Source: Escherichia coli
Lineage (GTDB): Bacteria; Pseudomonadota; Gammaproteobacteria; Enterobacterales; Enterobacteriaceae
Assembly: GCF_003334815.1 (NCBI RefSeq)
Contig: NZ_QOWO01000082.1
Direction: 5' to 3' (one strand)
Length of the DNA: 3,437 nucleotides
Position numbers and translations under genes: made by a program. This document shows, piece by piece, positions 1 through 3,428 of the stretch; positions within the stretch are counted from its first letter, which is position 1, and every line of letters starts with the position of its first letter. The notes beneath the pieces were generated by a model. That model saw only the letters and a list, made by a program, of their open reading frames with translations, was not told where the DNA came from and made no database searches.

Positions 1-73
1 CACATCCTGTCCCGTTTTTCAGGCCATTATAGCCTGTTATTTTTGTGCATCATAGTCTTATGCAGACGGCAGA

Positions 74-144: not shown

Positions 145-486
145 GTGCCAATGGCTTCTAAAAAATTTTACTCAGATGATGACATCCAGCTGGCAAAAGC
201 TGCCTTATCGGAATTGCCGGACCTCACCGCTCAACGGAAAACATTGCGTGATTTTCTTGATGCCATTCGTGATGACATCATTGTCCTGGTAAGGACAAAG
301 GGTTATACACTGGCAGATGTTCGTGACACGCTTAAAAATGCAGGGTATGAAGTAGGAGAGAAGGCACTTCGTGACATTATTCGGGAAGCAGAATCGAAAA
401 AACCATCCCGCCGTTCTTCCTCTAAAACAGCACCTAAAAAGACAGATTCAGGCAGGAAAGATGGCATCGATATGAACAACAATTGA
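145..486 (+). CDS. Hypothetical small protein (112-113 aa) with Lys/Arg/Ser/Thr-rich C-terminal tail; possibly DNA-binding, function not recognised
   Basis: Open frame 145..486 ending at TGA 484-486. The GTG at 145 is only ~4 nt from GGAGA (136-140), so ATG 151 (spacing ~10 nt) is the more likely start. The tail KKPSRRSSSKTAPKKTDSGRK resembles tails of small nucleic-acid-binding proteins. No family confidently recognised. Confidence 0.6.
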   Translation: MPMASKKFYSDDDIQLAKAALSELPDLTAQRKTLRDFLDAIRDDIIVLVRTKGYTLADVRDTLKNAGYEVGEKALRDIIREAESKKPSRRSSSKTAPKKTDSGRKDGIDMNNN

Positions 487-571: not shown

Positions 572-1423
572 TCAGACTCGTGGCGGCAATGCACCAGGAT
601 AATACCGTGCAATAACATCATTCAGTTTTTCAACAAGGTCAGAACGCTTAAAGACAATGTGTACGGTCCCTTTCTGGTAGCCACGTACCGTAAAATATTC
701 CCCTTCTAACAGCTTACCGACATTGTCGCCGTTCCCGAGAAACTCACCATACTGCGCCCCGATGCTGCTCCGGAAGTCAGGAACGTTGCGCCCCTCCAGC
801 AGATAAAACGGACGTACCAGGTCATCCAGTGCCTCCCTTCCGCTGCAGTCCAGCGTCACACGCCCGTTACTCCAGCGGTACAGCAGGTTTTCAATAATGA
901 TTTTCTTGCCCAGACGGCAGGGATTGTTGGTTCTGTAATCCCATGACAGTTTCCTGTAGACATCAATCAGTCCTTGTTCAAATGTCTGCATCTTACTGGC
1001 ATTCAGATGGCGAAAAGTTGCCAGTACATTGTCCAGGGTGATTTCAGGACAGGTGTCGCTCATCAGCTGGCTGTTCCACTCATCACGCTGGCATGAACTC
1101 ATGAAGGTGTACATGCCCGTATCTGTCATCAGGCGGTCCCAGATTTTCCGGTCGGCAAGACGGGTGATATTCCTTTTCGCTTCTTCCGGCTTATCCATGC
1201 GACGAACGGAATCAGTCACGCAGTCTTCAAACCCGTAAAGAAAAATATCACCTGACGCATCGAGCAGAATCTTGCGCGCTGTCGCCAGGCATTCCATCGC
1301 CTGCATGAATAGTGCAATACCTTCGTTACGCTGCGCGATGATGCGGTCGATAGCCACAGACGGAATAACATCTGTCGTGCCGGCAGTATTCAGGTCAGCA
1401 GTGGGTAAAGTCTGATTCATCAC
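572..1423 (-). CDS. Conserved hypothetical protein, 283 aa, function unknown
   Basis: Long uninterrupted frame (852 nt) on the - strand with GAGGAG (complement of 1428-1433) upstream. ATG at 1420..1418 gives ~8 nt spacing and is an equally plausible start to GTG at 1423..1421. Ends at the shared terminator. No nucleotidyltransferase, methyltransferase or nuclease signature recognised by eye. Confidence 0.75.
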   Translation of the reverse strand: MMNQTLPTADLNTAGTTDVIPSVAIDRIIAQRNEGIALFMQAMECLATARKILLDASGDIFLYGFEDCVTDSVRRMDKPEEAKRNITRLADRKIWDRLMTDTGMYTFMSSCQRDEWNSQLMSDTCPEITLDNVLATFRHLNASKMQTFEQGLIDVYRKLSWDYRTNNPCRLGKKIIIENLLYRWSNGRVTLDCSGREALDDLVRPFYLLEGRNVPDFRSSIGAQYGEFLGNGDNVGKLLEGEYFTVRGYQKGTVHIVFKRSDLVEKLNDVIARYYPGALPPRV

Positions 1424-1440: not shown

Positions 1441-1890
1441 ACGACTGCCGGGTCAGCCAGGTCATTTCCCGGAGGAGCGAAGCTCCTTCTGCCGTCCGGG
1501 TCTTAGGGTATTTCCCCGCAGTGGACCTTTCCGACGGGGGACGCTCACCACGTCACGGGGCAGTTGTCCGGGGGCAGACGCAAAAGTTTTTGACGCCTGC
1601 GGCAAAAAGTTTTGTGGCTGGTACATCTCTCCCCTGGACGACTGAAACGGGATGTGGTCGTGTATGTACCCCCGGAAAGTCCGTCTGCGGAGAACAGGCC
1701 GCAGTGCGGCGGCAGACAGGCAGAGACAGCTGCGCCATCAGGCGCAGTGGCCTTACACACCGTCAGGTGTGCAGGGAGCGCCGCATCCGGCGCGACTGGA
1801 GAAAACCGACGGCACAACAACGGCATGCGGTGGTCACTGGTACACCACTCCCGCACAGGTGAAAACAGAGAAAACAGCACGACATCCATA
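1441..1890. other. GC-rich, apparently non-coding spacer containing a series of short perfect GC-stem hairpins; candidate structured RNA or DNA element
   Basis: Hand counts give roughly 55-70% GC per 60-nt line versus ~50% in flanking genes. All three + frames and two - frames are open simultaneously (stop-codon depletion from GC richness, not coding). Hairpins: 1471-1489 (loop GAA), 1685-1704, 1730-1747 (7 bp, loop ATCA), 1756-1771 (6 bp, loop GTCA), 1778-1793 (6 bp, loop CATC). Confidence 0.4.
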
Positions 1891-1900
1891 ATCAAAAAAA

Positions 1901-1915
1901 GTGAAATTTCTTCAC
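1901..1915. promoter_or_regulatory. Operator-like palindrome GTGAA-N5-TTCAC (copy 1), upstream of the HTH gene promoter
   Basis: GTGAAatttcTTCAC followed by TTTTTCA. A second copy with the same half-sites and the same 3' flank is at 1968-1982. Confidence 0.4.
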
Positions 1916-1950
1916 TTTTTCACACTTATTTATCGCGCTGATTTGGTGAT

Positions 1951-1964
1951 TATGATGATAAAAT
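1951..1964 (+). promoter_or_regulatory. Putative -10 region of the HTH gene promoter (TATGAT 1951-1956 and/or TG-n-TAAAAT 1956-1964)
   Basis: AT-rich sequence with two overlapping -10-like hexamers ~35-45 nt upstream of ATG 2000. The 12-mer TGATGATAAAAT is identical to 106-117 upstream of the first gene, at almost the same distance from the start codon. Confidence 0.4.
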
Positions 1965-1967
1965 AAA

Positions 1968-1982
1968 GTGAAGTTTTTTCAC
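1968..1982. promoter_or_regulatory. Operator-like palindrome GTGAA-N5-TTCAC (copy 2), overlapping the predicted transcription start of the HTH gene
   Basis: GTGAAgttttTTCAC followed by TTTTTCA. The two copies are 67 bp apart centre to centre and bracket the -10 region, a classic autoregulation layout. Confidence 0.4.
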
Positions 1983-1999
1983 TTTTTCAAAGGTGTTTT

Positions 2000-2251
2000 A
2001 TGACCGGCTGGGAACTGCGAATCTGGCGAAAAAGCATGCTCTGGTCACGCGAAAAAGCGGCCAGAGAATTTGGCGTGACGCAGAGAACATGGCACGCCTG
2101 GGAAAATGCGGAACAGGTGGACGTCACCGTCTGGAGGACCACCCAGGCTCTTTCAGTCCGTGACCTGCTGCCTCACATGCAGGGGATGCGCAAGGCAGAT
2201 ATCATCAGGCGTCTGGAAAATGAACTGGGGGAAACGGCAGGGAATGTGTGA
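2000..2251 (+). CDS. XRE-family helix-turn-helix DNA-binding protein (83 aa), YiaG/HigA-antitoxin-like
   Basis: ATG 2000 preceded by AGGTG (1991-1995); stop TGA 2249-2251. The N-terminal segment GWELRIWRKSMLWSREKAAREFGVTQRTWHAWENAE matches the XRE-type HTH pattern (LS..ElA..lGVs..Tv..WE) seen in HigA/YiaG-like regulators. Confidence 0.75.
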   Translation: MTGWELRIWRKSMLWSREKAAREFGVTQRTWHAWENAEQVDVTVWRTTQALSVRDLLPHMQGMRKADIIRRLENELGETAGNV

Positions 2252-2262
2252 GCGTGATTCAC

Positions 2263-2283
2263 AGCCTGGCAGAATGCCAGGCT
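2263..2283. other. Hairpin (8-bp stem AGCCTGGC / GCCAGGCT, 5-nt loop) between the convergent HTH gene and the orphan small ORF
   Basis: Perfect inverted repeat overlapping the stop codon (TAG, 2284..2282) of the - strand small ORF. No U-tract, so it may be a transcript-stabilising stem or weak terminator. Confidence 0.3.
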
Positions 2284-2510: not shown

Positions 2511-2537
2511 GCAAAAAGCCCGGCATTTTGCCGGGCT
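2511..2537 (-). terminator. Rho-independent terminator immediately downstream of the Rpn gene (- strand)
   Basis: On the - strand: AGCCCGGCA-AAA-TGCCGGGCT (7-8 bp GC stem, 3-nt loop) followed by TTTTT. It starts 13 nt after the rpn stop codon (2552..2550). Confidence 0.65.
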
Positions 2538-2549
2538 GTGATGCTCTCA

Positions 2550-2699
2550 TCAGTGAATGACTTTTTTCAGTTCAGCTTCGGAAAGTCCGGTGGCCTGCTT
2601 AATCTGCTCAGGTGTCATCCCCATTTTCTGAAGCTGACGCGCAATGGCAAGGGCTTTTTCAAGCGCACCTTTCTGCTCAAGACGTTCTGCGATTGTCAT
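2550..2699 (-). CDS. Putative intragenic small protein (49 aa, RpnS-like) translated from an internal in-frame ATG of the Rpn gene
   Basis: Internal ATG at 2699..2697 in the rpn frame, preceded by GAGGAT (complement of 2706-2711) with 7-nt spacing. Product would be MTIAERLEQKGALEKALAIARQLQKMGMTPEQIKQATGLSEAELKKVIH. Consistent with reported intragenic antitoxins of Rpn nucleases (from memory). Confidence 0.45.
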   Translation of the reverse strand: MTIAERLEQKGALEKALAIARQLQKMGMTPEQIKQATGLSEAELKKVIH

Positions 2700-3428
2700 C
2701 AGTTTATCCTCATGCTGCGGCAGGCGCTCGGCCAGCGCCCGCATAAATTCCGGTGATACAGAGTCCCCTGCGTTAACGATGTAATGAATCAGAACACGCA
2801 CCTGCTCGTCTGAAATTTCCACCATGACCTGCGGGAGTTTGTCCAGCAGCTCCATCATGTCACGATGGCGGATATGCTTCATCAGCAGCGTCAGTGCGGC
2901 CATCCGGCGATGGTTCATGATTTCATTGTCATCAACGACAGTGATATCAACCAGCGGAAACGGCTTTGTGTATATTTTAGCCGCAAGTGACGGATTCTCA
3001 AAACAGTCCAGCCAGTTCATGCTGTACGGATACGGGCTGCGCTCACCATGATAGAACAGCACCGGAATCACCAGTGGCAACGTTTTGTGCTGCTCCAGAT
3101 GTCTCTGCATCGCCGCCACACTGTAACGTAACATGCGGAAAGGCATGTACAGATTTTCGGTGCTCTGGTGCTCGATGAGCGTATAAACATAGCCATCTTC
3201 ACCCCCGGTGGTTTTCACGCTCCAGAGGATATCGCTGGCGTACTGATGCAGGTCCGGCTCAACAAAGGTGGCGGGTTCCAGCTTCAGCGTGGACAGGTCG
3301 CACAACTGCCGGTACTCCGCCGGAAGATGCAGTTCCAGAAAATCTCTGGCGACGTCGGGATTCGCCAGGAACGACCGGAACGCGGCATCATGCGGCGTGG
3401 GCGTTGTGGTGTTTTTCTTCTTACTCAC
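2550..3428 (-). CDS. Rpn family recombination-promoting nuclease / YhgA-like putative transposase (PD-(D/E)xK nuclease), 292 aa
   Basis: N-terminus TPHDAAFRSFLANPDVARDFLELHLP and the core DILWSVKT...YVYTLIEHQS match the YhgA/Rpn family (Pfam Transposase_31-like) as I recall it. The C-terminal tail ...AERLEQKG...TGLSEAELKK is the typical Rpn tail. GTG start at 3428..3426 with GGAGG (complement of 3433-3437) 4 nt upstream. Gene is complete, but its promoter lies outside the window. Confidence 0.9.
   Translation of the reverse strand: MSKKKNTTTPTPHDAAFRSFLANPDVARDFLELHLPAEYRQLCDLSTLKLEPATFVEPDLHQYASDILWSVKTTGGEDGYVYTLIEHQSTENLYMPFRMLRYSVAAMQRHLEQHKTLPLVIPVLFYHGERSPYPYSMNWLDCFENPSLAAKIYTKPFPLVDITVVDDNEIMNHRRMAALTLLMKHIRHRDMMELLDKLPQVMVEISDEQVRVLIHYIVNAGDSVSPEFMRALAERLPQHEDKLMTIAERLEQKGALEKALAIARQLQKMGMTPEQIKQATGLSEAELKKVIH
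2706..2711 (-). promoter_or_regulatory. Internal Shine-Dalgarno (GAGGAT) inside the Rpn coding sequence, serving the internal ATG at 2699
   Basis: - strand reads GAGGATAAACTG-ATG; AGGA lies 7-8 nt upstream of the ATG, which is near-optimal spacing. Confidence 0.4.

Follow-up and report, generated by a model that had tools for sequence, protein, structure and literature searches.

A 3,437-bp stretch of Escherichia coli DNA (contig NZ_QOWO01000082.1, hereafter the window) holds a short gene at 2000..2251 which an earlier note, made from the sequence alone, had described as an XRE/HigA-like helix-turn-helix (HTH) gene without a cognate toxin. Three roles had been offered for it: a solo regulator, a remnant of a toxin-antitoxin (TA) pair, or a gene whose transcription runs against that of the ORF facing it. 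What the product of this gene is, what it binds and when it can be made were the questions addressed here. The ORF was recovered exactly where the note had placed it; it lies on the + strand, starts with ATG and encodes 83 aa (Table 1). Its product was identical to WP_000148286.1, which is Hp21 of the plasmid pESBL (O3K_25942; 68116-68367), and the names attached to the protein in databases include YgeA, following R64-type naming, and 'XRE family transcriptional regulator'.

Matches to the window came from 2,092 plasmid records, conjugative IncI1/I-gamma plasmids from Salmonella and E. coli being 99.9% identical to it. The window represents that part of the leading region of an IncI1/Igamma plasmid which is closest to oriT, starting at oriT itself and adjoining nikA-nikB. 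Its features follow one another in the order yggA-like gene (+ strand), DUF4942 gene (- strand), a 330-bp element, the HTH gene (+ strand), an ORF resembling the tail of Rpn (- strand) and rpn itself (- strand). Beyond rpn lie ardA, psiA/psiB, a ParB-family gene, ssb and others, all of them on the - strand, and across the 16-kb leading region only the HTH gene and the yggA-like gene were found on the + strand.

Table 1. Features of the window, with positions (first letter of the window = 1), strand and basis or remarks
Feature	Position	Strand	Basis or remarks
yggA-like ORF	145-486	+	pESBL annotates the gene at the same position as YggA
DUF4942 gene	572-1423	-	First gene downstream of the oriT-proximal candidate ssDNA promoter
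Candidate ssi/Frpo-like (class 1) ssDNA promoter element, 330 bp	1468..1799	+	Would drive the - strand DUF4942 gene; repeats and fold
Distal putative operator, AAAGTGAA-atttc-TTCACTTT	1898..1918	.	Centre 67 bp 5' of that of the proximal operator
Predicted extended -10, TGaTAAAAT	1956..1964	+	Inferred from sequence; directly against the proximal operator
Proximal putative operator, AAAGTGAA-gtttt-TTCACTTT	1965..1985	.	Centre 25 nt 5' of the ATG; overlaps the predicted transcription start
Shine-Dalgarno-like AAGGTG	1990..1995	+	4 nt 5' of the ATG; read from sequence
XRE-type HTH CDS, ATG start, 83 aa	2000..2251	+	ORF list, Pfam, AF2 model, dN/dS
GC-rich 9-bp hairpin between HTH and tail ORFs	2263..2283	.	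No U-tract after it on either strand
Rpn-tail ORF, 68 aa	2282..2488	-	46% identity to Rpn residues 244-290
Terminator-like hairpin, AGCCCGGCA-AAA-UGCCGGGCU then UUUUUG	2512-2537	-	Separates the rpn stop (2550) from the tail ORF start (2488)
rpn	2550-3428	-	Adjacent to the tail ORF

The assignment of the protein to the HTH class was borne out by profile searches and by structure prediction. Residues 3-40 matched Pfam HTH_31 (E = 1e-4) and the protein matched, less closely, HTH_3 (E = 0.022), the two profiles being matched at E<=1e-3 by 22 and 19 of the 31 family members, respectively, while no meaningful family for the protein was returned by PADLOC or NCBIfam. The AlphaFold2 model was all-helical, with five helices and a pLDDT of 89.8; a profile match together with a five-helix bundle in which helices 2-3 form the HTH places the protein in the XRE/Cro-C1 superfamily. 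The family is small (79 cluster representatives among 1.84 billion at E<=1e-3), and tblastn returned no homolog with >60% identity outside the IncI-type group; the intact gene was present in about 3,500 plasmid records. Comparison with an 85%-identical homolog carried by a pESI-type plasmid of Salmonella Infantis gave a dN/dS of 0.07 at a dS of 1.2, from which it follows that the protein is strongly constrained, and the ORF is, by this measure, a real gene under strong purifying selection. The family alignment revealed a common N-terminus, MTG[WYF]ELRxWR, and a common recognition helix, LRT[YW]xx[YW]E; conservation of MTG[WYF]EL through the family supports the start codon.

No functional study of the protein was found in a literature search covering ygeA/IncI1/R64, leading-region XRE repressors and the protein accession. 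In a Tn-seq study of pESBL, Hp21 was scored 1.00 for non-essential, 0.00 for essential and 0.00 for required for transfer (PMC4288162). Hp25, the other 252-bp gene of pESBL, located beside pnd, bears no similarity to the HTH gene. The ygeA of the F plasmid was rejected as the same gene and put down to a clash of names: the F gene sits downstream of Frpo1, from which it is expressed early and from single-stranded DNA (PMC9849209).

A recurrent layout was seen around diverged homologs, with an HTH gene standing alone on the opposite strand in six plasmid loci. In this layout - strand leading genes are followed by a 600-900-bp non-coding gap, the putative operators, the HTH gene on the + strand and, immediately after it, convergent genes on the - strand (L007, L012, L013, L016 and L017/L018; HTH proteins 40-57% identical to that of the window), and in L007, L012 and L013 it lies beside the relaxase, NikA and yggA-like genes. 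The gaps upstream of the diverged homologs were structured, folding as ssDNA with z = -5.6 to -7.0. The convergent neighbour varied, being Rpn in the window; elsewhere it was an N6-methyltransferase-like protein, or its place was taken by small ORFs with an ArdA-type anti-restriction gene behind them. A functional link with Rpn as a general rule was rejected, as the diverged homologs face methyltransferase-like or anti-restriction genes; judged from the loci compared, the association of HTH gene and rpn is confined to close relatives and is a matter of descent, not a rule. The HTH gene, the tail ORF and rpn are retained together as a block in pESI, which carries an IncI-derived backbone, so that this block is not independent evidence.

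The first possibility to be weighed was that of a TA pair. That no small toxin ORF flanks the gene, as the earlier note had seen, held for the whole window: the single upstream candidate, the + strand ORF 1652..1891 ('hypothetical' in some records), was rejected as spurious, since the GC-rich, non-coding repeat in which it sits occurs in three copies that are distinguished by non-triplet indels of one and two bases, with no frame kept. Extending the check to homologous loci, as the note had proposed, likewise yielded no conserved adjacent toxin in ten contexts, and none was co-transcribed with the gene in the window. XRE HTH domains are frequent among antitoxins, the protein gave weak matches to MqsA, HipB and HigA2, Rpn proteins are toxic nucleases, and the pESI block keeps HTH gene, tail ORF and rpn together; on these grounds the protein could be taken for an orphan antitoxin or for what remains of a type II TA pair, its former or present toxin possibly being the neighbouring Rpn nuclease. 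We regard this as barely credible, because rpn is convergent to the HTH gene and not co-transcribed with it, leaving no co-oriented partner, while the diverged homologs keep their stand-alone layout with neighbours other than Rpn, and the one block that speaks for the pairing comes, as said, from an IncI-derived backbone.

In type II antitoxins of the XRE class (HigA, MqsA, HipB) the cognate toxin is expected in the same operon, whereas none was found in that of the HTH gene here or in homologous loci; similarity to these proteins also ranked below similarity to Aca2. Their loss is expected to be deleterious, whereas transposon insertions in the HTH gene were tolerated (PMC4288162), which is unexpected for an antitoxin facing an active toxin, and a role as active antitoxin is accordingly very unlikely. 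A decaying antitoxin is ruled out by the same tolerance combined with the strong purifying selection (dN/dS 0.07) and the solo layout conserved in six diverged loci, and the idea of a TA remnant found no support.

The nearest solved relatives of the protein were Aca2 and Aca10, which are anti-CRISPR-associated repressors, and not HigA, and its N-terminal HTH domain is homologous to that of Aca2. Aca2 of Pectobacterium phage ZF40 is about 116-125 aa long and has an alpha/beta C-terminal dimerisation domain, which the 83-aa protein lacks, and Pfam Aca2_YdiL (PF08965) was matched by 0/31 family members at E<=1e-3 and by 2/31 at E<=0.1. The operator cores also differ (AAGTG/CACTT at the HTH gene, TTCG for Aca2), and so does the genetic setting: Aca regulators share an operon with an acr or other anti-defence gene, usually lying just downstream of it, whereas the HTH gene is monocistronic with all its neighbours on the other strand. 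Aca10/Aca1, Cro/CI-type repressors and the controller (C) proteins of restriction-modification (R-M) systems were compared as well. No acr or R-M genes are associated with the HTH gene in the window, the protein has an extra long helix 4 plus a helix 5 (residues 42-81), and a fixed position beside a leading-region ssDNA promoter is no described feature of these families. The AcrIE9/10a HTH-like protein known from Klebsiella plasmids, compared by its description only, has a beta-hairpin insertion that is absent from the model. The HTH protein is a member of the XRE superfamily; of the features that define the other groups it lacks the C-terminal domain of Aca2/YdiL, the acr operon context of Aca regulators and those of type II antitoxins.

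Two perfect 21-bp palindromes, AAAGTGAA-N5-TTCACTTT, were detected upstream of the gene within a 44-nt direct repeat, against an expectation of 0 by chance in the window. On the complete 98,012-bp plasmid these were the only two sites matching AAAGTG-N9-CACTTT at <=1 mismatch (0.27 expected); no further putative operators were found at this cut-off, and relaxing it to <=2 mismatches gave 6 sites versus 3.7 expected. The core motif AAGTG-N9-CACTT recurred upstream of homologs sharing 35-85% protein identity, the 3.4 kb of DNA preceding these genes holding 18 sites compared with 1 in 118 kb elsewhere, and was found before every member of the closer subfamily examined, namely those of pESI (85%), of metagenomic and Enterobacter plasmids (46-57%) and of a phage-plasmid (35%). 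The distant homologs of IncL/M and related Klebsiella plasmids (L003, L014, L019/L020) do not carry it.

Spacing was conserved along with sequence. The proximal site was centred 24-34 nt before the ATG, 9 homologous loci on plasmids showing a comparable distance; in 9/10 loci it directly followed TAAAAT or a variant differing at one base, and the distal site lay 54-67 bp further upstream in 7/10 homolog loci. Between the window and pESI the putative operators, the -10 and the RBS were kept while the spacer between the operators had diverged, which is the signature of a repressor occluding its own -10/+1. The predicted promoter has a poor -35, and a consensus scan gave no + strand promoter, only a weak one on the - strand. 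The statement in the earlier note that the DNA upstream of the gene is promoter DNA stood for the nearest ~110 bp (1888-1999), which hold the predicted HTH promoter and putative operators, and did not stand for 1468-1799, which appears to be the ssDNA promoter of a gene on the opposite strand.

As the stems have runs of A and T on their flanks, fold as hairpins at -6 to -9 kcal/mol and have equivalents in L007 that were flagged as terminator-like on the - strand, the palindromes, being AT-rich, might instead terminate transcription in both directions or insulate the leading operons from each other, with the protein binding elsewhere, on the host chromosome or other mobile elements. Such stems are weak for terminators, however, and the proximal one lies between the -10 and the RBS of the HTH gene itself. 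Moreover, it is the half-site sequence, and not mere pairing, that is conserved over unrelated flanks, including a phage-plasmid site with no T-run (L005), which favours recognition by a protein. We consider the terminator explanation improbable. That the protein has targets in the host was retained as a rival in its own right.

The timing of expression depends on which strand enters the recipient. The + strand of the window begins CATCCTG/T (CACATCCTG/T, window 1-10), which we take to be the nic-site core YATCCTG/Y of MOBP relaxases, the slash marking the nick; on this assumption the nick falls at window 9/10 and the + strand is the one transferred, in agreement with the oriT coordinates of pESBL (70354-70436). 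The transferred + strand is the template for the - strand genes and the non-template strand for the HTH gene. Having the same sense as the HTH mRNA, it would allow transcription of the gene only after second-strand synthesis, and we infer that expression is late and confined to double-stranded DNA (dsDNA).

For the leading genes on the other strand, a start from ssDNA is suggested by the 330-bp element. It occurs in three copies of about 80% identity on the plasmid, the others at L001 15367-15695 and 21714-22042, both upstream of - strand leading genes, one of which is ssb. Its fold as ssDNA is much more stable than that of shuffled controls (z = -6.8), with a long hairpin in the transferred (+) strand. 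By its repeats and fold the element fits the ssi1-3/Frpo-type class 1 ssDNA promoters, which have been mapped in the IncI1 plasmid pESBL and transcribe, in IncI1 plasmids, the strand other than that of the HTH gene (PMC12672017). That certain families of the leading region are encoded against the transferred strand has been noted by Samuel et al. (PMC11541004).

The other + strand gene of the leading region offers a partial parallel. Orf35 of pCTX-M3, the IncM homolog of R64 YggA, represses the nikAB-tra operon (PMC6112013). As a counterpart of the HTH gene it was rejected, orf35 corresponding to the yggA-like ORF 145-486. Orf35/YggA resembles the HTH gene in being a small oriT-adjoining gene encoded against the orientation of the transferred strand, and sets a precedent for such genes being regulators, but the protein is unrelated to the HTH protein and has no recognised HTH. 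The label 'molybdopterin-guanine dinucleotide biosynthesis protein MobC' given to ORF 145-486 looks like a misannotation.

Of the roles first offered, that of solo regulator agrees with a stand-alone XRE-type HTH gene, with two palindromes at its own promoter and with an arrangement conserved across homologs of 35-85% identity. Going by these sequence patterns, the protein is probably a dimeric Aca2-like XRE repressor, and not an antitoxin, which would regulate its own gene negatively through two operators and be expressed only from the double-stranded plasmid. A dimer of this small XRE-family repressor, presumably held together through helices 4-5, would bind the two 21-bp palindromes, with their core AAGTG-N9-CACTT, at the sigma-70 promoter of its own gene. 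Since the proximal operator lies against the -10 and covers the predicted transcription start, bound protein would block transcription of this gene, in the manner of Aca-type and Cro-type autorepressors. The incoming single strand would be no template for the HTH gene, and its transcription would begin once the complementary strand has been made, which would set it apart from nearly all nearby leading-region genes, read as these appear to be from ssDNA promoters.

A wider reach, by which the protein would be an Aca-type controller of anti-defence genes, also repressing a leftward promoter of the same intergenic region that reads across the ssi element into the DUF4942 gene, and silencing the leading genes once they are double-stranded, seems to us rather unlikely. 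It would accord with Aca2 and Aca10 being the closest relatives and with the Aca2 promoter, which, like that of the HTH gene, carries two inverted repeats (PMC6765145). A promoter-like GTGAAA-16-TATCAT on the - strand (1982 to 1955) overlaps the proximal operator, the HTH gene is divergent from the - strand leading operon in the six diverged loci, and the neighbours are of anti-defence type (Antirestrict, N6_Mtase, Rpn). The leftward promoter scores only 9/12, however, and no equivalent of it was found in L007, L012 and L013; the HTH gene shares its transcript with no acr or other gene, Pfam Aca2_YdiL went unmatched, and transposon insertions had no transfer phenotype (PMC4288162).

On its downstream side the gene is faced by the convergent tail ORF, which does begin 30 bp past the HTH stop, as the earlier note had it, and is homologous to the C-terminus of Rpn. 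The interval between the two genes contains no canonical terminator but a strong hairpin that lacks a U-tract (2263..2283; RNA fold -18 kcal/mol on the + strand and -20.1 kcal/mol on the - strand). The 30-bp gap without a U-tract terminator makes convergent read-through plausible, and overlapping HTH and tail transcripts would be plausible products of this arrangement. A further hairpin is found on the - strand between rpn and the tail ORF, where 2496-2549 folds at -21 kcal/mol.

If HTH mRNA ran on unterminated as antisense into the tail ORF and rpn, the gene might act mainly through its transcription, with colliding transcripts tuning the ratio of Rpn to its tail-type inhibitor and autoregulation setting the strength of the interference. 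Besides the U-less hairpin in the gap, the retention of the HTH, tail and Rpn block in pESI would suit such a role. We give it a slim chance, as the dN/dS of 0.07 and the conserved operators point to a function of the protein, diverged homologs have other convergent neighbours, and rpn is already parted from the tail ORF by a terminator-like hairpin on the - strand.

It counts against autorepression as the whole story that regulation of itself only is hard to square with such strong conservation; a target beyond the gene's own promoter would have to exist, and no further operator lies on the plasmid at <=1 mismatch. Our best guess at this wider role is local control of transcription at the junction of two ssDNA-promoter operons once the plasmid is double-stranded. 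More speculatively, YgeA-type HTH genes might be a conserved 'second-strand sensor' of MOBP/MPF_I plasmids, among the earliest to be expressed from dsDNA in the recipient and switching the leading region out of its early anti-defence programme into a silent established state. The HTH gene would then lie where second-strand synthesis primed at the neighbouring ssi comes to its end, its operators about 100 bp from the oriT-proximal ssDNA promoter, with dsDNA alone expressing it; the protein might also act on operators of the host or of rival elements, as a plasmid counterpart of phage Aca control. We think this decidedly unlikely.

The gene is fairly ordinary, save for its fixed, backwards-facing place among early anti-defence genes beside an ssDNA promoter. 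Among the major carriers of ESBL and AmpC resistance genes are plasmids of the IncI type, whose leading regions have come to be seen as anti-defence islands that are expressed from ssDNA; the HTH gene is one of only two genes in the 16-kb leading region that would not be expressible in this way. If it controls the hand-over from the early to the established state, it would provide a handle on plasmid establishment; should it regulate nothing but itself, it would simply add to the number of small XRE repressors. Either way, 'HTH regulator / possible orphan antitoxin' could give way to a more precise label, 'Aca2-like autorepressor with a defined operator'.

Several minor observations were made on the neighbouring features. 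The 68-aa tail ORF is a duplicate, since diverged, of the C-terminal tail of Rpn, its start being equivalent to the internal Met244 of Rpn (MTIAERL...), and presumably resembles the RpnS-type small intragenic inhibitors of Rpn toxins. Small inhibitors of this type were reportedly described by Zhong et al. in 2023. One and the same EGRQ-repeat insertion is present in both the tail ORF and the Rpn tail of pESI, which suggests concerted evolution of the two. The hairpin at 2512-2537 looks like an intrinsic terminator, and the tail ORF may perhaps be expressed by read-through only.

On the oriT-proximal side, the DUF4942 protein matched phrog_6263 (DNA methyltransferase; E 9e-18) and a PHROG of unknown function (E 1e-25), and may have an early anti-restriction or methylation-related role. 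Between the convergent yggA-like and DUF4942 genes lies a bidirectional terminator-like hairpin, AAAAAAAGCCCCGG...CCAGGGCUUUU (530-575), with a - strand fold of -23.4 kcal/mol (z = -4.2). Rfam returned nothing credible across the window.

The distant homologs of IncL/M plasmids, pOXA-48-like ones among them (about 30-35% identity), are located, as are those of the related Klebsiella plasmids, inside co-directional operons, some of them near a gene for an Mrr-type nuclease. In L003 (5001-5829) and L014 (6001-7307) the distant HTH homolog overlaps the neighbouring ORFs by a few bases, and the operon includes an Mrr_cat 'restriction endonuclease'. This operon setting is a regulatory context unlike that of the solo gene of IncI-type plasmids.
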